This document shows positions 1 through 52,309 of a stretch of 64,000 bases of DNA, piece by piece. The DNA is from Leptogorgia sarmentosa. Its lineage: Eukaryota. The stretch covers positions 7,378,001 through 7,442,000 of the forward strand of contig OZ210885.1 in assembly GCA_964658305.1 (NCBI GenBank), in the 5' to 3' direction. Below the pieces are notes generated by a model. That model was not told where the DNA came from. It searched no databases and saw only the letters and a program-made list of their open reading frames with translations. Numbering within the stretch: position 1 is the first letter of the stretch; every line of letters begins with the position of its first letter. The position numbers were made by a program, and so were the translations under genes.

Positions 1-669
1 GGATACTAAACCATGAAATGCAGTCCCCAAAAATTTGGCACCCCCCCAGAAATTTTTGGAATGTGCGCCCCTGCATATATTAGTCTTTCCTATTGAGCAT
101 TTTTCTAAAGAATTTGGCCCAAATTTTCCAAGTATGTTCACTTGTAGAATATTTTAGTATCAATCAGCATGTATTCGATTCTACTGTACTGAAACAATTT
201 GTCAGAGTTGTTCTCAATCTCTGTGAAGTGATAAGTTAATATTTAATAAGCTCCTAAAGTAGAAATAATATTGATCAGGACTAAACAACAATACAATTAA
301 TATTAGTAGTACAGTTAATTATATAATTAATATTACTGTTCAAGTTCAATTTTAAACAATGTCAAATGCTCTGAAAGCGTACTGTAGTTACAGTGTAGTT
401 AGTTCTGTAGTTACAGTAAATGCAGAATTGAACAAATTGTGGCAGACAAGCTTTTTATTTTGAGCTTCATACCAGGTTTGTATTATTTATTATATGGTCT
501 CTTCCATCTATTTTGTTCTTATAGTCAAAATTGCATCTTGGCATAAAGTTTACAGTATATATTGTGTATTCATTATGCATTCATTAACTTTGTTGTTGTT
601 GAAGACTCATATAGTGGAATTTTAATTGAACTAAACAGAATGAAATTTACCTAAATAAATCAACACACT

Positions 670-882
670 TGTTTTGACACTTTGACATTTTTAAGGAACA
701 TTATATAAGTTAATTTACGTATTGTTGTTGTTTGTAAGGAAAAGATCAAGAAACTTCGAAGGACAAAAACCATAAAAAAGCACTATTTTGACAACTTAAT
801 TTATCTATTCGTTTGATATTTGTACAAAATTAAAAAAGCTTAAAACACGTCCGTGTGTCTTTGTTGCGAAGAGTTCACAACA
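670..882 (+). repeat. 5' LTR (213 bp)
   Basis: TGTTTTGACAC...GAGTTCACAACA; near-identical to 6222-6453 except for a ~18-bp deletion near 717. Confidence 0.95.
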
Positions 883-1020
883 GTCAAAATAGTTTGATTT
901 TAGAGCGAAAAAGGAAGTTATTTTGGGCGACATATGCCAGATCAATAATACATTCCAAACACGTTCGAATAGTGACACGCTAAAATACAAAGACATCGAG
1001 GTTAGAAAATCACATCAACG

Positions 1021-4000
1021 ATGGTTAAAATTGAAGAGGCGATACGGAAAAGAAGTGCAGCGAAGAGAAAGTTCGACGACGAAGCAAAAAGTTTCGAAAT
1101 TGTGCTAGAAGCTCGCCCGGAAATATATCGCCTTGAAGAGGCTTTTGTCAAAGTCAAGGGGAAATATATCACGATTAGGGAAGTACATGATGAAATTACC
1201 GAATTAATGGTCGAAGCTGAGATTGAATCAACTAACTTTACCAACCACGATAGTTTTATTACGGAAATCATAGCAAAATATGGTCATTTGCTCGCTAAAT
1301 TAGAGCACTATCGAAAGAAATGTGAAATGGATAAAATATCAATGGAAACACCGACTGAATTGGGAATGAAACCGAAGTCCAATCTGGAGAGAATCAAAGT
1401 ACCACAATTTTCAGGCAACATTAAGAATTATCGAACATGGAAAAGAATATTCGAATCGAAGACACCATGAAAAAAAATGGCCAAGATGAGGGAAGTCAAC
1501 TTGCAAGATTGATCGAAGCGGTCCAACCCCTCCCCCCCCCCCCCCCCCCCTGAGATATGAAGTTGAATGCTTTACTACAACCAAAGCGATCTGGGCATTT
1601 CTCGACAAATCATTTGGAGATGACAAGGAATTAATTAGAATTTTGATGAATGAAATCAAAACAGTGAAACCCTTGAAGGTCAAAGATACAAAGTGGATTT
1701 ATCCTCACAATGGAGGATGTCGGAGCATCTGATGAAGCAAAAAGTAGATATGTGTTTGCAGATATTCTGGCAAAGTTAACAGCAGAAGATCAAAGGGCAT
1801 ATGGACGGAGTATGCTTGATACGAAGAAGGGCGAAAATCTGCAAACCCTGTTGGAATATTTAGAGGAAGAGTCGAAATTAATGGCATGCAGACAACCTCA
1901 ACAACGGTCCCTTAAAGGTAATTTTAACCCCCTTGATATAGACGGTGGCTACAATGATACCCCTGGGTGTGGTCTTGGTTGCTCCCAACTACATGGATTA
2001 GGTTACTGTCCAGCCTTTAAGAAAATGAAAGTGAAAGAAAAATGGGAAGTAGTGATTCAATCGAAAAGATGTAAAAAATGTTTGAAAACTGGACACAGAC
2101 ACCAACAATGTTCACGAAAAGCATGCGATATCAACAGCTGTGGAAAACCGCACCATTACTTATTACATAAAGATTCAAAACAAGAAGACAAAGGTAACCT
2201 GAACCCCGATGGAACACCAGTCAAACCACCCGGATTAGAAACCGTTAGTTCTATTTCAGCCAATAGTGCAGGAATTGCAAATGTAACCAAAGTGCATGGC
2301 GCTAATGGATACGCTATTGAAGGACTTGCAATGGTGGATAGCGGTTCCAATCAGAGTCTGATTCGAAAGGAGTTTGCGGACAAACTCGGTTTGATCGGAA
2401 AACGAAAAAGATGAAGATGTATGTTGCAGGTGGTGGAATAAGGGTTGAAGATTCGGCGGAACTTGATTTAAAGATCTCCCCCTGCTATGATGAGGATATT
2501 GTGTTTGATGTAAAAGCCTATTCCGTGAAGAAACCTTGCCAAGCAGCCAAAACTGTTTCGAAGAAAGCGGTAACCCAGTTTCCACATTTAGTTTGCATCG
2601 TAGAAGAGCTACATTTAAGTGGGGGTCCAGTAGACATTCTATTGGGAACAGATCTACCTGAAGCCCATCGTGACTTTAACGTTCTGACGGGAAATCCTGG
2701 TGAGCCGATTGCGAGGAAGAACATCTTTGGTTGGTCAGTCCTTGGTCATCTTGAAGAGAAAGGTGCCCCTGGAATTTTCGCCCTGGAAAATATAGATGAA
2801 GCAGCAAAAATCCAGGACATTAAGAAATTGGTTTTTCAAGATCAAATCGGAATCAAACCGACTCAATTACTGTACATGTTCTGAGAAGGAAATGCAAGAG
2901 TGCGCATTCATTCGACATGTTCGTGAGTCTACTAAAGTCTTGGACGATGGAAGAATTGAAGTTAAAATGCCGTGGAAACCCGGGCATCCCAATTTACCAA
3001 ACAACTGATCTGTGGCGTTCAAACGAATGGTGTCAAAAGAAAAGCAGCTGGCAAAAAAAGGAAAATTGGAATCATTTAACCAGGAAGTGAAAGCCTTGGT
3101 TGACAGAGAAGTGGTCATCAAGCTGAAACCTGATGAAGTAAACCCGGACGAGCCCGCGTGGTATCTACCGATTGGAGAAGTCGAAAGCCCTGACAAGACT
3201 ACCAAATGCAGATTGGTCTTTGATGCAGCAGCCAAAATGGATGGACTTTCGCTCAATGATGCTCTTGAAAAAGGTCCATGCCTTATGAATTCCCTCTTTG
3301 ATGTGTTGGTTGGTTGGAGACAGAGTGAAACTGCCTTTGCCGGAGACATTTCGAAGATGTTTAATCAGATCGCTGTCCATCCAGACGACCAGAAATACCA
3401 TCGATTCCTATGGAGAGACGGAGAAACTAACAAAGAGCCTGATGTGTATCAGTGGGTACGTCTCAGTTTTGGGGATAAACCTTCTCCAGACCTTGCCATC
3501 AATGCCATTAATCTTCTCGCCGATAGAGCCCAAGTCGAGTTTCCAGAAGCAACAAGGATTCTGAAAGATCATACTTATGTGGACGACATCGCTGGGTCTG
3601 ATGCATCACCGGAGAAAGTTAAAGAAATGACCACTGGTATCGATGCAATTCTGTCTAAAGGAAAGTTTACCATTAAAGCATGGCACAGTAACAGCCCAGA
3701 GATTGATCAAGATCCCAACGAGAATCCAGGGAGTCTATTGGGTCATCAATGGGATAAGAAAGCTGATAGTATTGCTTTAAAGAGAGAGGCAGTGAATGCA
3801 GATCTCAGTTATTGTACGAAACGCTCTTGGTTTGGTATCCCAGCTGTGGGACCCACCAGTACTGATGGCACCAGTTTCAATTCAGTTCAGAATCGATCTC
3901 CAGAGTCTATGGGCGGCTGGCTTCCAGTGGGATGAGTTACTACCACCAGAAGAAAAGTCCAAATGGGTAAAGAATCTCGAGATCATGAACGCTCTTCTAG

Positions 4001-6154
4001 GTACTCATCTGGAAAGGTGCCTAAAGCCAGAAACAGCCGTTGGAAATCCACAATTCCATGGGTTCTCGGATGCGGGAGAATTAGGATATGGCGGCGCTCT
4101 CTTCCTTCGATGGGAACTGGCAAATGGCAAGTTTACCTCCAGATTCGTTGCAGCAAAGGCCTTGGTTGTGCCACTGAAGAAGAAGACAATACCAAGACTA
4201 GAACTGATGGGTTGCTTGGTGCTGAGTAGACTGGCAGCTGAAATCGAACGAGCCTTAAAGATAAATCTGGATGAGACATTCTGGTGTGATTCAACGACAG
4301 CCTTGTCTTGGATAAAGACCTCTGCAACGGAATTTAAACCATTTGTGAGTGTCCGAGTCGCAGAGATACAAGAGAGCCAACCAAATGCTGCTTGGAATTA
4401 TATCACCTCCGAAGCCAACCCAGCAGATGCACTCACTAGAGGGATAACACCTGATGAGCTCCAGTTATGGCACTATGGTCCTCAATTCCTCCAGAAGCCA
4501 GAAAGCGAATGGCCTGACTTCAAACGATCTACTGTCACGTCCTAGTCACATCCCGACCCGGAGAAAAAGAACAAATCAAAAATCAAGATAGATTTACAGC
4601 TTACTCAGAGTAACATTTCAGTAATTGACGCTGGGGGGGGGGGGGGGGGTAAACAACGGACAAGCTGTTGGTAACAATGGGGACACTCAAGAAGTTCTTA
4701 ACAGAATTCTGGCCGGGTCATCGACCTTTCGCAAAGCAAGAAGAGTGACCGCCTTGCTAGTAAGAGCGATTAAGAACATTATCCAGAAGAAAAATATTAG
4801 AGGACCGATCTCTGTTCCTGAACTAAAAGACGCTGAAAAACGACTGATCAAGATGACACAAGCAGGCATGGACGTGACTGGGAAGAGAATGGAAAATCTA
4901 ATCCCATTTGTGGACGAAAATGGAATTTGGAAAGCTAAAGGAAGATTAGAAAAGGCTCGTGACCTACCCCCCGAGAGCTCCGAAACTCAGTCATAATATC
5001 GAATAACCAATCCTTGGTTAAATTGTTGCTACAGCACTACCACCAAAAGTTGGCGCATTGTGGCTACAAACGATTGATGATGGAAATCAGACAGAGGTAT
5101 TGGGTGATTGGCCTAAGAGATGCAGCCAGAAATCATGTCAAAGGTTGCATCCCTTGCAAACGAATGCGAAAAAGAGCATGTGAACAAGGCATGGGACAGC
5201 TACCAAGCTACCGAACACATGTCTATCATCCTGCCTTTGCCAACACAGCGTTAGACCTTTTTGGCCCATTTGAGATCAAAGTTGGAAGGAAAACTATCAA
5301 ACAGGCCTGGTGTTGCATATTCACGTGCATGACAAGTAGAGCAGTCCACCTTGAGCTATGTATGGACAAGTCTACAGATACGTTTTTAATGGCTTTCAGA
5401 AGATTCGTATGTCTAAGAGGACATCCAAAATTAGTTTGGTCCGACTGAGGGACTAATTTCGTTGGTTCTCAACGCTACCTGCAGGAGATGGTGCAGAACT
5501 GGGACATACCAAAGATCCAATCCAACTCTGTAGAGTTTTGCACTTCGTTCGAATGGTGTTGGAATGTACCTAAAGCTAGTCACATGAATGGAGTCCTGGA
5601 ATCCCTGATAAAGTCAGTTCGAAGAGCATTGGAAAGTTCGTGCAAAATGGCAGCCTACACAGAAGAACAATGGAGAACCTTCCTAGCTGAAGTAACGTTC
5701 TTGGTCAACTCCAGCTAGACCTTTGTACCCTGCATCCGACAACATTTGGGAAGACCCTCCGATTACTCCAAATGACCTGATCATGGGACCAAATTTTGGT
5801 GTACCACAACCTGAGGAAGAGGAGATAGTTAACCCGAGAGATCTCAGTAAAAGTGTCCAAAGAAGAGTTTGTGAGTTCTGGAAATGTTGGATGAAATATT
5901 TCGCTCCAAATTTGTTAGTGGGAGCAAAGTGGCACGAGAAGAAAGAGAATGTTGGAGTTGGAGATCTTGTATTAGAAATCGACGGAAAACGCAAGAGGGG
6001 CGAGTGGCAAATAGCTGTGGTAGAACTTCCCGGTGATGAAAATCTTGTTCGTAAAGTAAAGATAAGAACGTCGAAGGGAGTTTACGACAGACCAATAGCA
6101 AAGTTATGCCTAATTGCAACACAACACGAACTCGAACAGAAAGGAACAATGTAA
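1021..6154 (+). pseudogene. BEL/Pao gag-pol polyprotein with multiple frameshifts and stops
   Basis: Gag LERIKVPQFSG; three Cys/His knuckles (CKKCLKTGHRHQQC etc.); protease VDSGS; RT YVDD; RNase H FSDA..PRLEL..WCDS..NPAD; integrase HHCC plus DLFGP/SD*GTNF/LES; C-terminal GDLVL...RP..KL motif; split over about 10 ORFs. Confidence 0.93.
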
Positions 6155-6221
6155 CGGTTAAACAGAAACAGAGACTAAGTATCGTTGCTCAAACGTTGAC
6201 GTTCTCCGCACTGGGGAGGAG

Positions 6222-6453
6222 TGTTTTGACACTTTGACATTTTTAAGGAACATTATATAAGTTAATTTATGCTAATAATTTTTGTCACGTGTTGTTGTTG
6301 TTTGTAAGGAAAAGATCAAGAAACTTCGAAGGACAAAAACCATAAAAAAAACACTATTTTGACAACTTAATTTATCTATTCGTTTGATATTTGTACAAAA
6401 TTAAAAAAGCTTAAAACACGTCCGTGTGTCTTTGTTGCGAAGAGTTCACAACA
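6222..6453 (+). repeat. 3' LTR (232 bp)
   Basis: Direct repeat of 670-882, preceded by the PPT and followed by TSD ACACT. Confidence 0.95.
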
Positions 6454-7073
6454 ACACTTGACTTGATAGAGATTAGCAGACACAAAATCAATACCGTAGA
6501 CTAGTGATAAATTTTGACCACTTGTAAACTTATGCCTTTTAAGGATTGTCATTTTGCTTACATTCTTATATTCACAAGTGGATAAACATTGGACCATTCC
6601 AAAAAAATTCTTTCAGTACAACAGGATTAAACTTTGTTTACAAGCCCATGCCATGGCCATATTATTGTTCATAATTGAAAACAATATTAATATACTGTAC
6701 CGGTAAACTATATCTAGAACAGCACTGCTGCCTACTGTCCAGGAACGAGTCAGAAACACAATATACAGTTGTGCATATATTAATTTATCAAATTTAAAGT
6801 ATAATTTCTCAGTAATTTCAATTCATCATTCGAACCAACGTCACTATAAAATAAAATCTAATTTTCTAAAATTTGATACACACGCGGGTGTCTTAGCACA
6901 CAGCCCACTGCGTTCCTTCTTGAGATGGTAACTTCGAAACAGTAAAAATATAGCATGCTGCTCAAGTTCAGTGACCTGGTCTGGCAGAAACATTATCTGT
7001 ATGTACATTTACTATAACCCTGTGTATAGTAAATCTATGAATCTATAAATCAGACCTTTCGGTGATTTCCACG

Positions 7074-7877: not shown

Positions 7878-8900
7878 AATCTTAATCAGGATCCTACAGG
7901 ATCCTATAAGATCTTATAGGATCCTGTTTAGGAACAAGATCTTAATTAGGATCCTGTAGGATCTTAATCAGGAAAAAGGATTGGCTTAAGATCTTAGTAT
8001 CAAGTAAGATCTTACTTAGGATCCTAATGTCATAAGATCCTAAGGTCGTAAGATCTTACTTAGAATCCTAAGATCCTGCCTAAAAGCTTAAGAAAAATTT
8101 GAACAGCTCAATAATTTTGTACACAATATTTTGTGTAAATGTATTTATATGGGTTATCTTGGAGCAATCTAAAATACACTTTTATGATTTATATATTTTC
8201 AAAGTATTATTACTAAATCAACAAACAAGTATTTACAATTACGTCAGTAGATGTCCCTGTAAATTTAAATGCAATTGAAACTAGCCCTCAATACATCAAT
8301 TTCAAAAAGTGATCTATATGTTATAATAACTAACAAACAATTATATATTTTCTTGACTGTTTTACTAATTAAATATTAACAATTTCCTTTATGATTTACT
8401 CAAGAATTTATTCAAGATCTTAACAATTTCTTATAAGATTCACTCAAGATCTTAACAATTCCCCATAAGATTTACTCAGGATCCTGACAATTTCCTATAA
8501 GATTCACTTTAGGATCCTAATAATTTCCTGTAAGATTTACTCAAGATCTTAACAATTTCTTATAAGATTTACTCAAGATCTTAACGATTTCTTATAAGAT
8601 TTACTTTAAGATCTTGACAAGTTCTTATATGATTTACTTAAGATCTTAACAATTTCTTATAAGATTTACTCAAGATTATGACAATTTCCCATAAGATTTA
8701 CTCAGGATCTTTACAATTTCCTATAAGATTCACTTTAGGATCCTAACAATTTCCTATAAGATTTACTTTAGGATCCTAACAATTTCCTATAAGATTTACT
8801 CAAGATCTTAACAATTTCTTATTAGATTTACTCAAGATCTCAACAATTTCTTATAACATTTTAGTCAGGATTTTAACAATTTCCTATAAGAATTACTCAA
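7878..8900. repeat. Left subterminal repeat arrays of the CACTA element
   Basis: Dense TAAGATCTT/AGGATCCT motifs at 7878-8080 and ~31-bp tandem units AAGATTTACTCAAGATCTTAACAATTTCTTAT at ~8390-8900. Confidence 0.88.
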
Positions 8901-9010
8901 GATACCAACAGGTACAATTACTACTCTCAGTTGCCGGTGATCCTAAAACGTCTTAACCGCTGCATTTTTTCAGATTTAACATAACATTGAAGTCATAAAA
9001 CTGTATCTAA

Positions 9011-9465: not shown

Positions 9466-12400
9466 TTAGTCATGTTGATAGCGTTTTAAGACGGAAGACA
9501 CAAATCCGTAACCATTGTTTTCCTTGGATTCGACGAGGACAACCTTGGAAACAATGGAAGAACAGTTGATTAACTTCTGCTGGTTTGTCCGCCTAACCGC
9601 AACAAAATGGCACCCAAGATAGTCAGACGAATGGAACTCTTTCATTACGGGATCGTTTGGTTCTTGCGGCAAATCATTGCATACGTTATGCTGCAAATTA
9701 CGGAAGAGACTGATCACAGCAAAACCAACGTCGCCCTGTTTGACAAAAAATTCCACTTTCCCAAAATACTCCTGTTCATTCTCACGGATCTTTATCAGAA
9801 AACTAACTGATTTCTTTCGGCGAACATAGCTAGTGCTGTGGTAAGTCTGTCCATGTTTGTTCATTCTTTGGGCAACAAGCAAGTTTTCTTCCTGATGGCG
9901 GGGAAAACCTTCGACATTGTCTATTGCGGTTGTTAAAGGCTTCAGAGGCCCAATGAAACTTACACCATTTGCAAGTTCGACCATATCAGGAAGACGGTTG
10001 TACCTCAAAAGTTGTTCAGCAAATTCTTTTGCGTCGTTGTTACCTCTGAGGGCATTAAAAACATGATACTCTGCATGTTGTGCAACTGCCAACTTCTTGC
10101 ATATCTGGTCAGGAATACCACGCGTACCGTGAGACAGCCTCTTCAAATGGGCAAGCATCGATTCAAAAATAAATGCTGAGTGCAGGATCAAAGGACCATG
10201 TTCTCTAACTTGTTCTGCAAGATGGGTTAAGGAATGTGAGTTGAATGTTGCTTCCGAAATATCATATAATTCAGGCAGCAACCTGGTGTAGCTTAGAAGC
10301 ATTGCTTTAGCAATGTCAATTTCTTGATCAGTGATGCTATATTCACACAATAACCGCACACCGGTAACCAAAAGGGAATGGTGATAGAAAATTTCTGACG
10401 GTAGAATATCTTTCAGAACCGGAAGGCTTGCGTGAAGAAAAAAGTTCTGCTTTTCACTCGCTTTCCATCTCTTCAATTCGTTTAGCGATCTAAATTTCCG
10501 CTTGAAATCATGAGGTAACCCAATGCTGTGAAGACGGTCACTCAAACACTGAATATGCGGCTTTAGATTAACACCACTTGGACACGATCCTGACAACCAT
10601 TTTGCCATGCGCCTGGTGAATTCACCTTCGAGAACTTGATGCATGTAATCAAACAACAGCATCTCTGGGATTTGTAAAATTGTATGCACAACTGAAGAAC
10701 CTTTCACACCAAAAACTGTCTCTCCCGTTTCTGCTGCTAACTGAGCATGAGTTAAAGTATCGCGATGATTTCGTTTGGGAAATGCTGTGGGTGTATAAGG
10801 ATAAACACGTTTGTTACCACGACCAGGCATCCTTTGACCTGGATGTAAGCAAGAGCAACAACCAAATCTGCCATTGTGTAGTATAAAATTAACCGATGGG
10901 GCTTTTGCTACCAAATCAGCAACTTGCCCGCTCACCATCAGCTTAAAGTTTTGTTCCATTCGCTCATGAGACAAAGTAAAACCTTTCGTAAGATTTCCGA
11001 CTTCCTCGCAAAATTTTGATTGAAACACTTCCATATTTGGTTTCACTTTTCCGTACCAAATACCAGACAACAGTATGTTCTTGGAAGCTCAACGACAAAA
11101 CTCTGGATAGGCCAAATTGAAATGTTTTTGGACCGAAAAGCAGGTGCTCCATCAAGATGCCAGTAAATTGTGATAGGAAAGAATCCACTTTGGTTTACCT
11201 CGGCAAATAGGTGTTGGTATACTTTTCCATCAATTATATCCGTATAAATACCTGGGGTATGGGTATAGTTTTGGATAAATTTTTTTATGGAGTCCCAATG
11301 CTCTAAAATGATAATATTTTATTATTAATAAACTAATATCATTGTATTGGCGAAGATAATAAGATAAGTATATAGTCTTCACTAACCTGTCAATAACCTC
11401 TTCAACTCAGGTAGAATATCAATTGTGTAAAATACGCTGGAATTTTCACCACTAGCATATCTTTGATGGTAGTTGCATGTCCGATTTTCACACAAAAAGT
11501 CCTTCGTGAGAAGCGTTTGGCAATTCGTGCAGGTGACGTATTTGGTGGATACATACTCCAACTCTCTTTCCGTTTCCTTTTCAAAAATGTAGCTTGATTT
11601 GGGTAGCTTGCTCCCTTTAGGTAAGCACAATTCCAACATCTTTAACATGCTGTCTAGTGCTATATTTGCAATGTTGTGCCTTTGCCTTAATGCCAACAGA
11701 ATAGCATTAAATTCGGAAACAGACAATGAAGAGTCCTGAAACAGTGGTAGACCTTTCCGAAACACGCCCTCCTCATCCGAGATGCTACTTTCATCACTAT
11801 CACTGAGTAAAGATATGTCATCATGTGTATCTGAACATGAGTCGGAAATCTCGTCATCGCTTCGTTGGTAACCCTCAACGGTCTCTGTTTCACTGTTTTC
11901 AAAATCTATAAAATAGAACGTTTGTTTCTCTTTTATCTACTGTACATGCTTACTGCGATGAACTTCCCAAGTTCTATGCCGGATTTAAGATAAAATGAAG
12001 GTAAAATGAAGGCTCGAATCCTTCAGCGTAAATTATACTAGAGTGGCAATTATATAATTCATACCATGAATGGGCGAATGAACAAAGTTGCCAGTTGGCT
12101 GTTCATCAATACCACGACCATGATTAACATCTTCTGTAGCATTTGCATAACTTCCTTCCTCAAAATCAAAATCATGCTCTGCATCCTGATTCATCTCGGG
12201 AAAAGAACGCTCGTTGTTGCAGTTTTTCTTGAGAAATTTATTACATGACACATCTTCATCCGACTGATTAGAACCGTTTGACGTGTTGGAGGAAGAACTA
12301 ATCTCAGTGCTATCGCTATCAGTATCAATATCACTGTTGCTGGTTCTGCTTTGTCTAATAAATGTAGGAGATCCTAAAAAATGGTATTTGGAGTCAGTGA

Positions 12401-17339: not shown

Positions 17340-17890
17340 TAAGATCTTGCAATCAAAACATTTAAGATTTTATGCAAGATCTAAATACGATCCTTGTTAG
17401 GATCCTTTAAGATTACTATAAGATCTTATTAGGATCTTTCAGGATTATTATAAGATCTTATTAGGATCTTTCAGGATTATTATAAGATCTTATTAGGATC
17501 TTTCAAGATTATTATAAGATCTTATTAAGATCATTTAAGATTACAATAAGATCTTATTAAGACCATTAAGACGTATATAAGATCTTATTAAAAGCCATTG
17601 ATATTTATAAGATCTTATTAAGATCCTTTAAGATTTATCCAAGATCTTATCAGGATCTTTTAAGATCCTAATTATGATCTTATTAAGATCCTATTAAGAT
17701 CTTATTGTAGGATCCTATAAGATCTTGTAAGATCTTGTAAGATCCTACAGGATCTTAAATAAGATCTTACAAGATCTTACAGGATCCTGTAAGATCTTAT
17801 AGGATCCTATATTAAGATCTTAACAGGATCTTACTAAGATCTTACTCAAGATCTTAGTAAGATCTTACTTAAGATCTTAATTAAGATTTC
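17340..17890. repeat. Right subterminal repeat array of the CACTA element
   Basis: Tandem ATAAGATCTTATTAGGATCTTTCAGGATT-like units and TAAGATCTT palindromes. Confidence 0.88.
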
Positions 17891-38200: not shown

Positions 38201-39595
38201 TGAAAATTACAATTAGCATGAATTTTAAGACAGCTATACTACAGATTGACGATAAGATACGGTTATGCTGTTCTAACTAAAATGTATGCCTCTTCTCATA
38301 TTTTATTTGAACAGTGAGTACTACCAGCTTTCGCCCTTATTTAAATTATGAGATGCAGAATTTCGTCGAATTCTTATTCAATGCTTTCTAATTGAGCGAT
38401 TATTCATATAAAACGAACATCAGCGACACTGATTTGAAAATCCCACGTTACTAGTGTACCGCCTGGTGGAACAATTTTACTGTCCTTCAACATCATAAAA
38501 CAGTACTGATGATTTTTAGCAGCATGCAAATTGCGACTTGTAATGGTAGTGCAAGGCACAAAAATAGAAAATACAAATCATTCAGCATTTGAAGTCCAAG
38601 TACTTTAACAGTAATTTGTAATAAGAGGATTAATTTTTATAATCACCAACGGAATTTTCTGTGGAGATAACAACCAGAAATTAAACACATGCATGACATG
38701 AAATCCATGCTCGACCGAGAAATACAAAATTTCAAACCTGTCCATCGAGAAATACAAATTTCAAACCTGTCCACCGAGAAATACAAATTTAAAACCTGTC
38801 GACCGAGAAATACAAATTTAAAACCTGTCGACTTGTATTTGAAACCTGTCGACCGAGAAATACAAATGTAAAACCTGTCGACTAATCATTAAAGGTCAAC
38901 TGCATGTCGAACGTCGAAGGAAAAGAAATGATAGCGAGACCGCGTTGCACCACGACCGAGAAATACAAAATTTAAAACCTGTCGACCAAGAAATACATAT
39001 TGTTGCTGGGTATTAAATTGTTGCTGGGTATTAAATTGAATTGAAGAGAGTTGTTGCAGGTACCAAAATACAACTTGAGTCGGCAACCGGGGACTGACAA
39101 ATCTCACCTTAGAACTGTTACAAAAATCAACCTAAAAATAAGAAAATAGTTAAATAGAACAGTGGTATGTAAACTGTAATATTGTTAACAGTATTGGTGC
39201 CAGGACCTGTCGACCGAGAAATACAAATTTTAAAACCTGTCGACCGAGAAATACAAATTTGAAACCTGTGGACCGATTCTTCAACTGCATGTCGAACGTC
39301 GACGGAAAAGAAATGATAGCGAGACCGCGTTGCACGAAGGAAAAGAAATCATAGCGAGACCGCGTTGCACCACGGTTAGAATTTACAGTTGGGAAAAGTC
39401 CTGAAAATGCGGGTCGAACACCCTAAATTTACTGGTACCGTCATGCAATGCGCCAATAGAAAATTTTGATTTTGATCCACAAGACAAAATTAGGATCAGC
39501 TGCCTTGCTCGCTCGCTTCAGGCTCGCTCGCTGCGGCAGCAATTAGGATCTGCTGCCTTGCTCGCTCGCTTCAGGCTCGCTCGCTGCGGCAGCAA
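35246..39595 (-). mobile_element. Composite non-autonomous Helitron-type insertion (4.35 kb)
   Basis: Absent from arm A, where the site reads GCTTGA|TATTATT; inserted between A and T without TSD; minus-strand end TACCCTGTGGGTAAC-CTAG; internal tandem units 35246-36986 and 36987-39489 and two 53-bp units. Confidence 0.72.
38712..39275. repeat. ~29-bp minisatellite AAACCTGTCGACCGAGAAATACAAATTT in interrupted arrays
   Basis: About 6 copies at 38712-38882 and further copies near 38955 and 39205-39275. Confidence 0.85.
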
Positions 39596-42372: not shown

Positions 42373-45134
42373 CAAGTAGGGCGAAAATCGATCCACTGGC
42401 ACTGGGGACATTTTATGATTTAGCGACATTTTAAGCCTTACATAGATGTGTTACCGTCATTTTCTCTTTGTATACAATATGGTTATAAAATATGTTTGAC
42501 TTTCACGTCTGATGGTAGTACGATAGAGAAATCGAAGTGACATATTGATAGAAACTAAAGGAAAATTCAAGGAATTTTAAAACTATTTTCCAAGGCATTC
42601 TCATCGCAGGCTGAATTTTAATCTGCCGGAAATTGAAAGGGATTTCCCCTTTTCTCAAGCCATGTTCTGATTACACTCAGAGTTTTAATATTTTAGCCAG
42701 TCTGTGCTTTATTGTAGCAGTGAGTTTCATGTATTTCGTTCTCTGTCAATATAATCGCAATCATACTACATTGACGAATAATTGAAAGTGGGACAGGGAA
42801 TAACCAAGGAGGTGAGTTTGATTTAAATGTCTAGTAAACCAAAGAAATTCCCGTAGGATTTCCCGTCACAGAGCTGCGAAGATGCCGTGTGTTAGGAAAG
42901 CAATATACCCGTTGAAAGGAAAATACGTTAGACATGAACGACACAAATGACGGAACAAATATATTCAATCGTAATAAGTTTACAAATAGGTATAATTTGC
43001 TCGAAATAATGAACGAACTGCGAAGGACCAAAGCCGGAAGCTAAATCTTCATGCTGTACGTTTATATTTTGCCATACATGATTGTATTGATCGCCATTTC
43101 AAGCGTATTTATATCCCTATCAGAATTTATTTGCTGAAAACTCCACCAAAACCTAAAAGTTTTCGCTCTGTTAACACGGAATTTTTCAATACTGATATTA
43201 CTAATGCTAATAGAAATTCCTCATGACAGGATATGGCTTACTAAGCAAGATTTGCTTACAAATATTTATAGCTGCATTTCATATGACAAGGTTACAATCA
43301 TGATTTAATATTAGTGAAATAATATCAGCAATTACGTTGGCTGATAGAAGTCTATCAAAATTCACCTTCTCATTAAACAGGGTGCTCATAACAATATATA
43401 CTGTACACTTTGGTGAATTCAGTGGCTAATTTTGTCCCCTTCATTAATGATTTTTCCTACAGCTTCTCTAAGGCATTCCAACCCATTCCATACAAATTTC
43501 TTGGCAGTGACTAAGCCAAGCTGTGTTCAGACATACATTAATAAATGATATAGAAACTCTAACCCTATCATCATTGACTTTATACTGTAGTACAGCATGC
43601 ATCAAGTTGTATATTGCATCAGTAGTTTGTGACCTAGCTGGTGATTCCTAGCATGGCACATAAGTCCAGAGCATTCCCTGTTACACAGCGCCTTCACTTG
43701 CTCTAAAAATACCACCAAAACCTCTAGCTTTTGCTCTGCTAACCCACATTCTTTCAGTACAATTATATTATGCTTAATATAAATTTATTAAATAGTGAAG
43801 ACAATTCCAATAAGGGATTGGATTAGATTTGACTACATCATTCTGGATTGAGTCAATTTTGATTTTGATTTCAATCTGGAAGGATTGAATTGCTGATTGA
43901 AAATAATGCATTGAATGTGAAATCCTAATTTTATTGCAGAAAGAATATGACTGGGCCTGAAACTGCAAAACAAATCATGCATGTTTTTTGCCCACATGTT
44001 TTCATTCCTTAAATTCCAGTTTGCATGTACATAAACTGTCAAACTAGACACGAGTTTCTTTCTGCCACTTACTGGAAAAATCCCCCCTGCCTCTCGCACA
44101 TTTTACTTTAATTTTCATTGTTAGATTTGTTAGCTTATGATATAAGTTTTATAAACTGTTTGAATCTATAAAACCTGACTGTCAGGAATTGTAACTGTGA
44201 GATTCCAGACCAGCATTCTGACCGACCGAGGTATAGAAGTCACTTGTTGAGTAATAACTTTAAGTTCATGTAGATTTATCTTGTATTTGTGCAGATGGTT
44301 GGTTGTTATTGCTTAGTTGTTATATAATACTGTCCAAACAAAATCAAACTGCCACAGATACTGCCAAAGAACATTGAGTGTTTTAATTATTTCCCATCCC
44401 TGGGGGGGGGGGAGGGGGAGGGAGAAGAAGGGGAGGGGGCACTGATTTTTTAGTTTGGGTCATGTTACAATAAAGTAGACCACAACATTTTGTTGGTCTA
44501 TGAAACATCAATGAAATTGTTGGTTTCTTGTCAAAATTAACACTGGCTCTGCCCCATTTTCTTATCTCCTTATAGAAATGTGATTGGTTCAGCTGTTGAC
44601 ATCATTGAACAACAATACAGAGTGTGAAAAATTTGATTTTCAACCTGAATAAAAGGCTGCCAAATTAGAACATTTAGTTTCCTGAGATTATAAAATAAAT
44701 TAAGGTAAGTTAATTGTCCAGTAACAAACTTCAGAATGTGGTCAGTATTACCAGCGGATAACAGAATCGACAAGCATGAGGTGCTCCTTGATCGAGAATC
44801 AGTGTTGATAGTTAAGGAAAAGTGCACATATTATTTTCATGAGGGTGAACATATTAACATCTTTGTTGTCAATGGTTTTCCAATATGGTTTTTATTTTAG
44901 TCACCTACATATATAGATTACTTAATGCAATTGTATATAACCCCATGTGTCTCTCATCTCCCACAATATTTCCTGACAAAGGGCCCAGTTGTTCAAAATG
45001 TCAAACCTTATTGTGGCATCATTTAATATGTAGATAGGGGGGGGGGGGGGTTGCTGGTTGTCGATAAGTTATTACATCGCACTCAGACACCCAATTTTAT
45101 GGAATTTGATGACTGTCATAGGTGCTGTATTTCT

Positions 45135-45424
45135 ATTATATTCGGTGCTTTTAACATTATATTCGGTGCTTTTGACATTATATTCGGTGCTTTTAACATT
45201 ATATTCGGTGCTTTTAACATTATATTCGGTGCTTTTAACATTATATTCGGTGCTTTTAACATTATATTCGGTGCTTTTAACATTATATTCGGTGCTTTAT
45301 ACATTATATTCGGTGCTTTATACATTATATTCGGTGCTTTATACATTATATTCGGTGCTTTATACATTATGTTGGGTGCATTCGACATTATATTCGGTGA
45401 TAGTGTCTTTATATTCGGTGCTTT
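45135..45424 (+). repeat. 21-bp tandem repeat in the left TIR (~14 units)
   Basis: ATTATATTCGGTGCTTTTAAC and variants. Confidence 0.93.
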
Positions 45425-45637
45425 CTTCTTCATGTGCAAAAACTTTATCTTCAATTTCCTTATCTTGTACCCAGTCTTTCAATTTTGGCGCGGACAGTAA
45501 AATATGTGTTACTAACATGAAGTAATATGCACAGAAGCAATAGAAAATTGCGGGCATCTATAAACAATAAATGGTGGGAAACTAAAGCATGCTTTATTGC
45601 TTTTATACTTTTATAAATGCAGATTTGGAAAATGCAA

Positions 45638-46987
45638 ATGGAAAACATTTTGGAAAAGCTTAATCTCAGTTGTGTTACTGAAAACTTTTTAAGGGAGAAA
45701 ATCACTCCAGATATAGTTTGCCATCTTTCCTCGTTTGAATTCAATCAGTTGGGGATGAACCACGCCAGCGACGTTATGGCTTTGCGAATTGAGTGCACCA
45801 AATACGGGACTGGGAAGCCAACAAGCAGACGTGATGAATTTGGTAATCTTAGATACGAAATCCCAAAGAGCGTGCTTCAAAGCTATCTTCAAGAAGATTT
45901 TAAAATTTCAGAGATCGCAACAATGTTTTCCGTATCAGAGAGTACAATATATCGTAGAATGAGATCATACGGGCTAAGTAAATTAGAGTTTTCTGATATT
46001 TCTGACGAACAGTTAGACACCCACGTGCGGGGTATTGCAAACGATTTTCCATTTTGTGGGGAGATAATGATTAATCATCTTCTCAAGGGGAAAGGTGTTA
46101 AGGTGCAACGGATGAGATTACGCGATTCTATTCATCGAGTAGACGAATGTGGAGTTACAGAGAGAAAGAAAGGTAGATTGCACCGAAGAGTTTATAACGT
46201 CAAAGGTCCGAACCAACTTTGGCATGTGGATACCAACCATAAATTGGTGCGTTGGAATTTCATCATTGTTGGAGGTATTGATGGATTTAGTCGTCTGCCT
46301 GTCATGTTGCAGTGCACAAATAACAACAAGGCTGATACTCTTCTGTCATGTTTTGTTGAAGCTGTTTCTGGCTATGGTCTACCAAGCAGAGTCAGAACAG
46401 ATAAAGGCCTAGAAAATGTTGCTATAGCAGATTACATGATAGAAAAGAGGGGAAGTAATCGTGGTAGCATAATTACAGGACGTAGCACGCACAACCAACG
46501 AATCGAAAGGCTGTGGCGGGATGTATTCCAAGGCGTATTGAGCTATTATTACCATTTATTCTATTTCCTAGAAGACCAGAATTTTCTTGATCCAATTAAT
46601 ATAAAGCATATTGCTGCATTGCATTATGTATATATGGATGAAATTAATACGAAGCTTAAATTATGGCAAAGAGCATGGAGCAATCACCGTATGCGTTCTG
46701 TAAGGTCCAGTCCACTGAGGTTGTGGATTGCAGGTCAAATCCAAAATCCTGTTGGAGTTCAACTTTCAACGGATGAATTACAGTTTTTTGGAGTAGAAGG
46801 GCTTGAAGACAATGACAGAGAGGAAGATGAATCAGATGACCGACCAATTTTTTCACCACCAATTCTCCAACTCACTGATAACTGCATAGCAGAACTCAAC
46901 TCTATTACAGACAGTCAAAGTGACTACAATGTTGGTAAATACATGGTGGCACTTGAAATAATAGAGCAACATACAACTGGAAATTAA
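45638..46987 (+). CDS. SAM-like + HTH + integrase-core (DD34E) transposase, 449 aa, uninterrupted
   Basis: N-terminus MENILEKLNL..F..EKI...LG; HTH KISEIATMFSVSESTIYRRM; WHVDTNHKL, GIDGFSR, RTDKGLEN, HNQRIERLW. Confidence 0.92.
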   Translation: MENILEKLNLSCVTENFLREKITPDIVCHLSSFEFNQLGMNHASDVMALRIECTKYGTGKPTSRRDEFGNLRYEIPKSVLQSYLQEDFKISEIATMFSVSESTIYRRMRSYGLSKLEFSDISDEQLDTHVRGIANDFPFCGEIMINHLLKGKGVKVQRMRLRDSIHRVDECGVTERKKGRLHRRVYNVKGPNQLWHVDTNHKLVRWNFIIVGGIDGFSRLPVMLQCTNNNKADTLLSCFVEAVSGYGLPSRVRTDKGLENVAIADYMIEKRGSNRGSIITGRSTHNQRIERLWRDVFQGVLSYYYHLFYFLEDQNFLDPINIKHIAALHYVYMDEINTKLKLWQRAWSNHRMRSVRSSPLRLWIAGQIQNPVGVQLSTDELQFFGVEGLEDNDREEDESDDRPIFSPPILQLTDNCIAELNSITDSQSDYNVGKYMVALEIIEQHTTGN

Positions 46988-47318: not shown

Positions 47319-49952
47319 TCATGGATTTCCAAAATATGCATTTAGGAATGCTTCATCAAACATTTCGAAGAGTTTTTCATCACATGGTAGTGGAATAGTT
47401 ATGGATCCATGAGGCAGGGTCAAGACATTTATGCATGTATTTGCTGTAGGCAGAAATGATTTACTATATTCTTGGAATTGAATCGATGGTGAGATTCCAA
47501 ACCCCAGTAGTGGCTCTTCATCTGTCGACGTTGCAAACTGTAGAATGTGACCTAGTGTCACATCTCCTCGACGTCCACCTAGAATGTACAGTGTAGGTAC
47601 TATATAGTATGTTCAATTATTTGTAATTATTCCTATACATACAGATTCTGTTATTTCTGTACATTTAAATTATACATACCAGCAACGTCTTTAACATATT
47701 TGCAGAATCGAGAATAAACAGCACCCTCAAAACGTCTTCTGTTAGACCCATCTGGACTAAACTGCGGTGCTAACAGGGTATGTAGCTTACGTATTGTTAA
47801 TACGGAAGGTGGAGTGTACTTGAAAACATCTTGCATTGATGGCATCTTTATACAAATCTAAAAGAAAGTTTAGTGGAGAGTTGTTTAGTAAACAGCTGTT
47901 CCACATTAATTAGATGAGTATCTCTTCAATTCCTTAGTAGATCTCAGATTCAGTGGCAAAAAAACAATACTCATTTTTATAAAGGAGTTGTACAGTGAAC
48001 CTGGAATATCCCAACTTTCCTAAGACCTTGTCTTAGATTTTCAATACAAGGTGATACGCTCATATTCGTATCAAAAATTGTAGAAACAACATCAGCTTCA
48101 ATAAACTGTGGAAGCTTTCCATTTTGTAAAATGCTGAGGCCTACAAAAATGAAATCAAAGAATAAAATAATTAAAATTCGAAATTTTGTTATGAAAACAA
48201 TTGCATTTAGTGACTGACACCACGTTCATCAATTTTGATGCATTTTGCTTTGAAGAATAAAATCACATGTGAAAAAACATATTTGTCAAAATTGTTGTAT
48301 ACAAATGTTAAACAGGTTGAATGATACTGAAAGCATACCTAATATAGTTCCAACAATTGTATATTCATCACTTAGAAGCTCCCTGAGACCTCTGTCAAAA
48401 TACTTTTCCTTAATGTCCATTAGAATCAGTCGGAAAAATTCCCTTCTAGGTCCACCATAATCCTCAGCTTGCTATAAATATAAGAATTTTTAACATTAGA
48501 AAATAGAAATTATATATTATAAATGTTAAACTTACTAATCCAAAACGTCACATATTGAATGCTTTAAAAAGACAAAAAATCCTTTTTTAACTACTTTACC
48601 TCTCCATAAAATTGGATTTCTAATGTAAGCAAGGGATTCTCTAATGCTCCAATTTCATCCAATGCAGTTTCTAACAAGTTGTTGCGATCCACATGTATAT
48701 AATTTGTCTCCCCTTGTGGGCACTCATCTTCCCTTTCTATATCCAGCCTTCTCCCTTTCAGTATTTTCGACTGTAATGCACGAAGGATTTCTTTGTTGCT
48801 GTCTATATTGGTATTCTTGCACTGCTCTGAAACGTTTCTAACCATGTTATCAAGTTTATCCATATCCATTGGACCGTGCACGTAATCATCTTCTATTACA
48901 ATAGGGCTGTTGATTACATCATTTATATCAGGATTTTCATCGCTGTCTATTGATTGTTGAACAATGTTGATTGATTGTTGTTCAGCACTACTGGTTTGCT
49001 CAAATATTTCCAATGAAGTAGTGGTTAGGTCACTATCATTGTCAATGTCCACATGACCTGCACTGCTAACAGACTGAATTTGTCTTTGCTGCCTGAAATC
49101 AGATTCATCAGATGAATCTGAAGATAAAATGCCTGCTGTACAGGTGTAGAGATGACTACGCAATTCATTCAAAATAAACTCTTGGTTGCAGCCTTTCTTG
49201 CAGTTCTCTTTGACCTGCACATTGATATCAGGCTTAATTGGAGTAGTTGAAAGATTTTTCTGAATTGGTCTAACATATATTTTACACTGACTGCCAACAG
49301 TTGCTTTGAGGCTACTAACAGACCATGGACAATCAATGATGTGTAACTCTCTGCAGTTAGGCAAGCATCGCAACAACTCAAGCCCACCTGACTGACGAAG
49401 TTGAGGGAAGCCAATTGGTTCGCCGTGATCAGCCTTTTCCTCTGACATAATTCTATTAACAACTTCTTGAGCATTGTCACTCGCATCAAATTTGATTTTT
49501 TTCAATCCCAATCCGGCATTGCACAGTATTTCTTTTTCTATCGAATTTGGAATCTTTGTTTGCAGGCGATCAGCCAAACAAATCATTTGAACGGTCCATG
49601 TTCGCCCGCGACTTACCTTCCTTTTCCGTGAAGTTGCAGACGAATGGCGAGGATTGAAAAGCCTGGACCTCTCTGATGCAATCGAGGATAGGGATGGGCC
49701 AGCAGACGAATTTCCAGACAACTCTGTGTCCTCTGAATTCAAGGTACATTGACCCGCAGTACATTGAGTAGACGCAGAATCAGCAGAAGCCCTACACCTC
49801 TGTCGAAGACGAATGCGATCTCCCATGGTGGATACTCCAAGACGTGTGAGTTCTCCATCAGACATTGCAATGACAATTTCTGGCTCAATACGTTCTTCAG
49901 CAAACCGATGTTTAAGTGTTCCAAGGCCGAGTACTTCCAAAATGTTTTCCAT
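47319..49952 (-). CDS. SAM-like + C2HC zinc finger + HECT E3 ubiquitin ligase (G2E3-like HECT), 5 exons, 687 aa
   Basis: Exons 49952-48600, 48471-48339, 48140-48001, 47857-47680, 47578-47319, all GT-AG, totalling 2064 nt in frame; motifs FYGE-QAEDYGGPRREFF, ILQFAT, LPTANTCINVLTLP (catalytic Cys), terminal YFGNP. Confidence 0.9.
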
Positions 49953-50205
49953 TTATATTACAAGTTACAGCATCAAATAAAATTACGCATAAATCATTCT
50001 GCATTTATAAAAGTATAAAAGCAATAAAGCATGCTTTAGGCCTTTAGTTTCCCGCCATTTATTGTTTATAGATGCCCGCAATTTTCTATTGCTTCTGTGC
50101 ATATTACTTCATGTTAGTAACACATATTGTACTGTCCGCGCCAAAATTGGAAGACTGGGTACAAGATAAGGAAATTGAAGATAAAGTTTTTGCACATGAA
50201 GAAGA

Positions 50206-50410
50206 AAGCACCGAATATAAAGACACTATCAACGAATATAATGCCGAATGCACCCAACATAATGTATAAAGCACCGAATATAATGTCGAATGCACCCAAC
50301 ATAATGTATAAAGCACCGAATATAATGTATAAAGCACCGAATATAATGTTAAAAGCACCGAATATAATGTTAAAAGCACCGAATATAATGTTAAAAGCAC
50401 CGAATATAAT
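50206..50410 (-). repeat. 21-bp tandem repeat in the right TIR (~10 units)
   Basis: Reverse complement of the left-TIR array. Confidence 0.93.
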
Positions 50411-50447
50411 AGAAATACAGCACCTATGACAGTCATGGCATTCCATA

Positions 50448-52309
50448 TTTTTCGCTCTAAAATCAAACTATTTTGACTGTTGTGAACTCTTCGCAACAAA
50501 GACACACGGACGTGTTTTAAGCTTTTGGTATCTGCGAACGCAGATACTATGCTATGATCTTTCAGCTGTTAGCTGTTAGCTGTTAGCTGTTAGCTGTTAG
50601 CTTCTAGCCAATCAGCGACGAGCTTTTGCTTATAATTACGTAATGCAAGATGGCGGCGTTCGAGGAGTGAAGGCGATGTTCGATCGGATTTTTGCGAAAA
50701 TGTGAAGTGCAGTGTTTAAGTACGACGCTTTAAGCAAACAATCTTGACTTTGCAGGTCCCTGTCAATGTGCAGTTGTAATTTAACAAAGGATTTGAAACG
50801 GCAGCGTGCTGTTTTATCGGCCTTTCGATTTGTAAATTGAAAATGCGTACAGAGCACACTGTCCAGATGGCCGACCCATGAACGGTTTTGTCACAGCACG
50901 CTATATAAAAACTGGATACATTCTGTTGAAGTAGCCTGTTCGCAGGTTAAATCTAATCATATTCAAGATGGCGGTCAAAATTGAAATAAGGCCAAAACGA
51001 TATAATTAAATAATTTAATGACATTTACATGTAATATTAGGTAATCCCACGATATTCAGTGTAAAGCCATAGTTTTATACATATTGGAGGCACAAAGAAA
51101 TTTTTTTCCCAAGGAATTTCCTCGTATTTTCCACGAAAGAGTCGAAGGAGGAAGGTGAGAAATGCTGTATATGAGAACAGTCAACACTAACTAAACATCG
51201 CATATTTAATAAGACAGCATGCTGATTTAGGAAATCAGTTTGAGTATAGTTCTAGGTTTTAATGTTTTGTGCGTTGGGCTGTTAGCTTTGGGGTTCGATT
51301 AGTTTCATATTTAGGGTTAGCTTTAGTTTATGTTCATTTATTGCTTGCAAACCAATACTTTAGCGGTAGATTTAAGCGCAACCTGGACTTTTTAGCATGT
51401 CCCATTGCGCTTTCCGACGACTCATCCGTCAGTTCTGCTTCACCATTCGCAGATACATGTGCGCTTTGCGAACCTATTTTTTAATTTTGTACAAATATCA
51501 AACGAATAGATAAATTAAGTTGTCAAAATAGTGCTTTTTTTATGGTTTTTGTCCTTCGAAGTTTCTTGATCTTTTCCTTACAAACAACAACAACACGTAA
51601 ATTAACTTATATAATATTCCTTAAAAATGTCAAAGTGTCAAAACAAGTGTGTTGATTTATTTAGGTAAATTTCATTCTGTTTAGTTCAATTAAAATTCCA
51701 CTATATGAGTCTTCAACAACAACAAAGTTAATGAATGCATAATAAATACACAATATATACTGTAAACTTTATGCCAAGATGCAATTTTGACTATAAGAAC
51801 AAAATAGATGGAAGAGACCATATAATAAATAATACAAACCTGGTATGAAGCACAAATAAAAAGCTTGTCTGCCACAATTTGTTCAATTCTGCATTTACTG
51901 TAACTACAGAACTAACTACACTGTAACTACAGTACACTTTCAGAGCATTTGACATTGTTTAAAATTGAACTTGAACAGTAATATTAATTATATAATTAAC
52001 TGTACTACTAATATTAATTGTATTGTTGTTTAGTCCTGATCAATATTATTTCTACTTTAGGAGCTTATTAAATATTAACTTATCACTTCACAGAGATTGA
52101 GAACAACTCTGACAAATTGTATCAGTACAGTAGAATCAAATACTGATTGATACTAAAATATTCTACAAGTGAACATACTTGGAAAATTTGGGCCAAATTC
52201 TTTAGAAAAATGCTCAATAGGAAAGACTAACATATGCAGGGGAGCACATTCCAAAAATTTCTGGGGGGGTGCCAAGTTTTTGGGGACTGCATTTCATGGT
52301 TTAGTATCC
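50448..52309 (-). repeat. Inverted copy of window 1-912 (flank, BEL 5' LTR and 30 bp of internal sequence)
   Basis: 52309 corresponds to base 1; LTR copy at 50478-51645 is split by an insertion; shares the 5'-LTR-specific deletion. Confidence 0.95.
50527..51476 (+). mobile_element. Helentron-associated non-autonomous element (HINE/DINE-1-like)
   Basis: Inserted in a T run of the LTR; subTIR GTATCTGCGAA (50528-50538) / TTCGCAGATAC (51446-51456); 5' palindrome; (AGCTGTT)n microsatellite; 3' stem-loop at 51459-51473. Confidence 0.82.

Follow-up and report, generated by a model that had tools for sequence, protein, structure and literature searches.

Sequence signature of self-priming in a clade of BEL/Pao retrotransposons, with a putative primer that many families would complete only by splicing

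Reverse transcription in the BEL/Pao family is described as starting from a host tRNA, for which the ICTV profile of Belpaoviridae and Semotivirus gives an 18-nt primer binding site (PBS) specific for tRNA-Arg or tRNA-Gly (PMC8742986). How would a BEL/Pao element begin DNA synthesis if the sequence behind its 5′ LTR lacks such a site and matches its own LTR instead? The question is raised by a retrotransposon at the start of a 64,000-nt stretch of the Leptogorgia sarmentosa genome (the window), for which an earlier note had proposed priming by the element's own RNA in the manner of Tf1. We find that the sequence signature of self-priming is real and well controlled in the clade to which this element belongs, and that in many of its families the primer appears to be completed only by splicing. 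We put the probability that this clade starts minus-strand DNA synthesis from RNA derived from its own LTR, and not from a host tRNA, at roughly 60%.

The element spans 670-6453 (~5.8 kb) and is bounded by TG..CA LTRs, a 5′ LTR of 213 bp at 670-882 (+) and a 3′ LTR of 232 bp at 6222-6453 (+). These are flanked by a 5-bp target site duplication, ACACT, visible in the sequence at 665-669 on the left and 6454-6458 on the right, and the 3′ LTR is preceded by a polypurine tract (PPT; 6213-6221, +) with a TCCGCAC motif just before it that is common to the clade. The gag-pol region (1006-6154, +) has Pfam matches to RT, Peptidase_A17, an integrase H2C2 domain after the RT, and DUF5641, and the element is therefore BEL/Pao, as the earlier note had recognized. 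Full-length homologs carry the same pol domains plus DUF1759 (PF03564); among named homologs, those of Paramuricea clavata come closest (75-78% in RT), and other cnidarians and Styela clava have more distant ones. LTR termini, target site duplication, PPT, Pao-type pol, a single gag-pol in PR-RT-RH-IN order and the size of ~5.8 kb all agree with Belpaoviridae/Semotivirus. The 18-nt tRNA-Arg/Gly PBS of the profile is absent, and no TGG follows the LTR, either here, where its lack had been noted before, or in 18 ingroup loci from the best 80 of 133 matching stretches; the 18-nt site and host-tRNA priming belong to the profile, and the clade appears to have neither. Judged by sequence, we file the element as BEL/Pao by protein descent, departing from the ICTV profile in its description of priming. 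No chromodomain was found in the frames scanned with Pfam, and pol is Pao-type, not Ty3/gypsy, which places the element outside the Tf1/sushi chromoviruses.

As read here, the copy is a defective BEL/Pao LTR retrotransposon, with gag-pol in eight frame pieces resulting from stops and frameshifts. Its two LTRs align with only 2 substitutions and 19 gap columns; the 5′ LTR is 19 bp shorter, mainly through one deletion just 3′ of a TATA-like box, and the longer form is present in contigs of three sequencing runs. Movement of a defective copy in trans, or homopolymer errors in the assembly, could explain broken frames despite near-identical LTRs. Within gag-pol, long poly-C and poly-G runs are seen at frame breaks (1528-1550 and 4634-4649), though the LTRs are nearly identical.

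Directly behind the 5′ LTR, 0 nt from its end, lies a putative PBS of non-tRNA type (883-893, +; GTCAAAATAGT), which is the exact reverse complement of a putative self-primer segment within the LTR (782-792, +; ACTATTTTGAC), contiguous here and intron-split in many relatives. The earlier description of this pair is accurate in its particulars: the match stops at 11 nt on both sides, leaving C781 and T894 as well as A793 and A882 unpaired, an ATTAAA hexamer resembling a poly(A) signal follows at 828-833 (+), and further copies of the motifs stand at 6353-6363, where the 3′ LTR holds its own primer segment, and at 50467-50477 and 51522-51532. The 3′ base of 782-792 pairs with PBS position 1, as a minus-strand primer needs, so that extension would copy the LTR-terminal CA. 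A small U5 hairpin is predicted at 862-882 (+), stacked directly on the primer/PBS helix. In predicted transcripts running from 718, 740 or 782 to 900 or 960, helix probability is 0.98-1.0 for most pairs; it is weaker in longer folds, at 0.01 for 782-1050, 0.47-0.65 for 740- or 718-1050 and 0.3-0.9 from 670. The folding energy of the whole leader is unremarkable (z −0.28 and +0.94). The A-U-run-GA core of this segment and of its counterparts in relatives is reminiscent of an Sm binding site. A comparison of 600-1100 with Rfam, including its ribozymes, found no match, and no tRNA gene was found in the window or in 30 loci. An intron in the window's own LTR was considered and rejected, the best GT-AG junction match being 4 nt. 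In a sister family present in two sequencing runs, 14 letters differ in 773-882, none of the listed ones within 782-792, which is too few to count. None of the matching sequencing runs listed is recorded as RNA; one contig of one study, from a run that may be RNA, spans 670-849, ending 16 nt after ATTAAA, and is not used as evidence.

The copies of the pairing beyond 50 kb had been taken as support for it. They belong to an inverted segmental duplicate of window 1-912, comprising host flank, 5′ LTR and PBS (50448-52309, −; identity 98% and 100% in two parts), and not to a separate insertion; since the duplicate carries host flank too, it gives no independent evidence. A 950-bp insert (50527-51476) interrupts its LTR; one end of the insert carries a short palindrome, and a partial match to it (73%) lies at 53567-53751. 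Elsewhere, the window contains an NLR-like immune gene, recognized by the HEPN_DZIP3 and NACHT/NPHP3_N domains of its ORF (55007-56644, +), and two ORFs in opposite orientations, one with an rva_4 integrase core (45617-46987, +) and one with a weak C2HC zinc finger (48591-49952, −), which possibly form one DNA transposon-like element. Long open frames of 540 and 602 aa at 9466-11088 (−) and 57720-59528 (+) have no Pfam match, and tandem arrays with periods of 21, 29 and 32 nt occupy 8349-8910, 17361-17695, 38711-39276, 45072-45487 and 50152-50424.

Relatives were retrieved with an alignment of 28 homologs, yielding 80 metagenome loci, the best 80 of 133 matching stretches. The 5′ LTR junction can be read in 24 of these 80, comprising 18 ingroup loci, all of which begin CA/GTCAAAA and then diverge, and six TGG-type loci, which carry a tRNA-type TGG site at most 6 nt from the LTR end. 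A quick RT/RNase H tree, with SH-aLRT as its only support measure, places the window and the CA/GTCAAAA group in one clade (SH-aLRT 98) with the TGG loci outside; the window's branch is sister to all intron-bearing branches plus L017 and the L013 family. This tree was built without L061, which has too little RT, and without named BEL/Pao reference elements, and the branches neighboring the clade are represented by proteins alone. A search of viral contigs found no relatives, and two loci matched in prokaryote genomes, neither with a usable LTR junction. A single PPT-pattern match (L081) was rejected as a relative since it has no BEL coding sequence; L082 is a distant BEL/Pao element on a Poribacteria MAG contig, probably host contamination. 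In L009 (1683-1909), L013 (7298-7524) and L040 (2535-2963) an LTR sits directly between PPT and PBS, a layout that may reflect tandem elements sharing one LTR, or assembly circles.

The decisive comparison is between each PBS and its own LTR. It comprises 13 LTR/PBS pairs, the window plus 12 loci, which are related and represent about seven branches; L007, L019 and L020 (identical to tested rows), L051 (motif inside pol), and L005, L012 and L016 (contig ending before the primer region) fall outside it, and LTR starts are approximate for L018, L034 and L062. Pairing was scored as the bases from PBS position 1 that match the own LTR, and both uninterrupted matches and matches spanning any GT..AG pair 50-300 nt apart were allowed. 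Twelve of the 13 pairs, the window included, match perfectly over 11-14 nt, where a perfect complement of at least 10 nt between PBS and own 5′ LTR is the mark of Tf1-type elements; in the 13th, L061, seven perfect positions are followed by one G-U and the pairing continues to 13. The match is contiguous in the window (11 nt), L017 (12), L009 (13) and L013 (13), and runs across an intron in L001 (14), L006 and L057 (11), L018, L034 and L040 (12), and L062 and L063 (13), none of these having more than 6 contiguous nt. Five PBS types occur among the 13 pairs, and in a cross matrix the own PBS scores highest for each LTR, with ties only among identical PBS starts and L061 excepted because of its G-U change. 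The GTCAAAA core being invariant, covariation is confined to 4-7 distal PBS positions. Within these, the two sides change together between families, the outcome expected under self-priming in the comparison of post-LTR and intra-LTR 11-mers that had been proposed at the outset.

Controls behave differently. Shuffled sequences reach the observed length in 0-2 of 300 cases for the 12 perfect pairs (31/300 for L061), probes slid 12-210 nt downstream reach 11 nt in 3 of 800, and the six TGG-type BEL loci match their own LTR over at most 5 nt (five of the six with only part of the LTR). These six lie outside the clade. Covariation across families and these negative controls together point to self-priming. 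In 12 of 13 pairs, 88-127 nt separate the 3′ end of the primer from the LTR end, and A[AT]TAAA stands between the two in all eight elements checked. L018 (4903-4915; also L019 and L020) has a second contiguous 13-nt PBS complement, from the second PBS base and just after AATAAA, which is degenerate in L002 and L040 and is possibly an alternative fold.

For 8 of the 13 pairs, from four branches, the LTR contains the complement only in two pieces around a GT-AG intron, so that splicing would build the primer. The best introns for these pairs, picked by an unbiased search of every GT..AG pair, are 76-108 nt long with pyrimidine-rich acceptors, and their donors read GTAAGT in seven of eight and GTAATT in L057. 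The 12 introns read in all have the same length range and 27-35% GC, with GTAAGT donors in 10 and GTTAGT and GTAATT in the others, and YAG acceptors after pyrimidine-rich tracts. Their interiors are 42-61% alike between branches and their ends are kept. The T count after the acceptor tracks the A count in the PBS: L001 reads AGAATT, an 83-nt GT..AG intron and TTTGAC opposite a PBS with five A, and L006 reads AGAATT, a 107-nt intron and TTGAC opposite one with four A. The introns are present in 5′ and 3′ LTRs alike. Because the PBS complement spans the predicted splice junction, the PBS would match a junction possible only in RNA, and it is from these features that we infer splicing. The scarcity of clear branch-point motifs, seen in only 3 of 12 introns and there too close to the acceptor or weak, speaks against the intron model. 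L017 and the L013 family, nested among the four intron-bearing branches, look like cases of intron loss; for the L013 primer, simple and precise intron loss fits as well as a conceivable origin by microhomology with an old acceptor. On balance, it is probable that the host spliceosome assembles the primer from two LTR pieces around the intron, with replication gated by splicing. The intron would then be inherited since the RNA's primer end would not serve as template, and the window's element and two nested families would represent the intron-less state.

Pairing that is kept in relatives with different letters, often only across an intron, makes it likely that the element's own, sometimes spliced, RNA starts copying. 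Pol II would initiate within the LTR, most probably ~30 nt downstream of the TATA-like box; an LTR intron, where present, would be spliced to assemble the primer, a step not needed in the window's element; the LTR-derived RNA segment would fold back onto the PBS; and, as in Tf1, the element's RNase H would cleave behind the final GAC (C792 here) to leave a free 3′-OH. Extension across 793-882 would yield a 90-nt strong-stop DNA, which would jump to the 3′ LTR. Sequence 5′ of the cut would be inherited from the 3′ LTR only, and this would explain intron survival through reverse transcription, if splicing spares the 3′ copy. Start site, splicing and cleavage are the steps that we infer here. Several points weigh against folding in cis: one molecule would need to have its 5′ intron spliced and its 3′ intron retained, the predicted helix weakens when the fold extends to 1050, and copying would be expected to run on from the primer into any long 5′ leader and carry it into the PBS, unless the leader were trimmed, yet the matches end at 11-14 nt.

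How closely such an element would follow Tf1 depends on where its RNA begins. In an exact Tf1 copy, a variant of the self-priming reading, transcription would start at A782 and the primer would be the first 11 nt of the RNA. AC directly precedes the 11-13-nt primer in 11 of 12 LTR rows (the window's 5′ LTR has GC instead), the match usually starts on A with lengths clustering near Tf1's 11, and a short primer would explain its abrupt end. AC and the match stop at 11-14 nt argue for a defined 5′ end there; this could be a second start, or the AC could instead mark a second cut. In 10 of 12 LTRs, however, a TATA-like box stands 60-133 nt upstream of the primer, against a background of 6.5% per 80 nt; none of the 12 has such a box at −38..−20, and the window's box at 702-709 (+) would predict a start ~30 nt downstream, well before 782. 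L017 and L013 have a TCAG initiator-like site, which follows the TATA by 24-30 nt and precedes the primer by 30-39 nt, and a start at the primer would give the intron-bearing relatives a first exon of only 6-8 nt. The box positions favor 30-105 nt of leader ahead of the primer and a first exon of normal size; the proposed start at A782 is probably wrong or incomplete, and an exact Tf1 copy seems doubtful. The primer might also be supplied in trans by a short LTR-only RNA, spliced if an intron is present, ended at the LTR poly(A) signal, cut, and annealed to the PBS of an unspliced full-length RNA. This would account for intron retention without selective splicing, with solo LTRs as a possible source; the poly(A) hexamer follows the primer in 8/8 LTRs, all covariation evidence fits equally, and spliced LTR-contained transcripts are abundant in maize elements, according to the available part of that report (bioRxiv 10.64898/2026.05.08.723830). 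We nevertheless hold supply in trans to be unlikely, given the constrained distance from primer to LTR end, the helix that intron-less families such as the window's are predicted to fold in cis, and the co-packaging of a second RNA that it would require. Taking cis and trans models together, self-encoded priming is likely.

The helix might instead have a regulatory role in the leader (packaging, translation or PBS masking), with a host RNA such as a tRNA fragment or snRNA that matches the GTCAAAA core acting as primer. Such a role would suit the invariance of the 7-nt core in 18/18 ingroup junctions (from the best 80 of 133 stretches) and the U-run of the primer, which we take to resemble an Sm site. 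Half-tRNA priming exists in Copia, as described in the available part of PMC6317226. The distal PBS letters, however, vary by family and follow the own LTR even across the splice junction, the helix begins exactly at PBS position 1, and a 7-bp A/U-rich duplex would be a poor primer; we consider this reading improbable. Chance complementarity in an AT-rich repeat has some surface appeal in the window, where TTTGAC occurs three times in the LTR and overall folding z-scores are near zero. Where the earlier estimate was ~5e-5, LTR base composition gives an expectation of 1.4e-4, and the empirical rate is higher, with 306 of 63,776 11-mers (0.5%) having an exact complement in the preceding 213 nt of this repeat-rich window. 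No dinucleotide shuffle of the window's LTR (0/300) reaches 11 nt, and 12 of 13 pairs show the pairing in one and the same place though their letters differ; it is absent from slid probes and TGG-type elements, and chance is effectively refuted.

Comparison with known systems draws on the available parts of the texts cited. In Tf1 the PBS pairs with the element's own RNA and the primer is freed by RNase H cleavage (PMC7175516), and Tf1/Sushi elements are reported to self-prime, as Tcn1 and Copia TAR are predicted to do (PMC6317226, PMC7175516, PMC5341516). Tf1/Tf2 of Schizosaccharomyces pombe, Tf1/sushi and Tcn1 (Ty3/gypsy) resemble the present clade in having no tRNA PBS and ~11 nt beside the 5′ LTR complementary to their own LTR, as far as these texts describe them. 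The window's clade differs in being BEL/Pao, in a primer that is probably internal to the transcript and not its first 11 nt, and in its frequent intron split; RNase H cleavage is described for Tf1 and postulated here. The element would thus work like Tf1, but it is no member of the Tf1 clade. In the TAR lineage (Houba, Osr-1) of plant Ty1/copia, self-priming was predicted from LTR/PBS complementarity of at least 10 bp, the same kind of evidence, in Copia elements of plants and with no intron mentioned in the available text (PMC6317226). Maize LTR retrotransposons share introns inside LTRs with the relatives described here, but theirs are long and lie in non-coding LTR RNAs of unclear role, with no link to priming in the part available (bioRxiv 10.64898/2026.05.08.723830). 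Fungal GalEa elements with their Conserved Hairpin Site and bivalve TRIMs likewise have no recognizable tRNA PBS (PMC5445492, PMC6934838); unlike here, the hairpin lies wholly downstream of the LTR, and the GalEa authors report no U5 sequence complementary to it, in the text available.

Literature searches found no publication on BEL/Pao self-priming, nor one tying a retrotransposon self-primer to a splice junction; Repbase, GyDB and subscription papers were outside their reach and may mention the missing PBS. In their available parts, PMC6317226, PMC3601003 and PMC5445492 do not attribute self-priming to BEL/Pao, the main text of three BEL/Pao surveys (PMC554778, PMC3118150, PMC6238403) contains neither 'priming' nor 'tRNA', and PMC13524379, PMC6934838, PMC9094657, PMC8220671 and PMC4558846 yield no further case.

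Self-priming has so far been shown or proposed in Ty3/gypsy and Ty1/copia, and the BEL/Pao clade would make a third LTR superfamily; if true, this contradicts the textbook account of tRNA priming in the BEL/Pao family. PBS-based annotation misses such elements. If true, a primer built by splicing would connect RNA processing with reverse transcription in a new way, and it would account for a retroelement keeping an intron through its RNA stage. Self-primed elements would not depend on tRNA supply and would likely escape inhibition by tRNA fragments.
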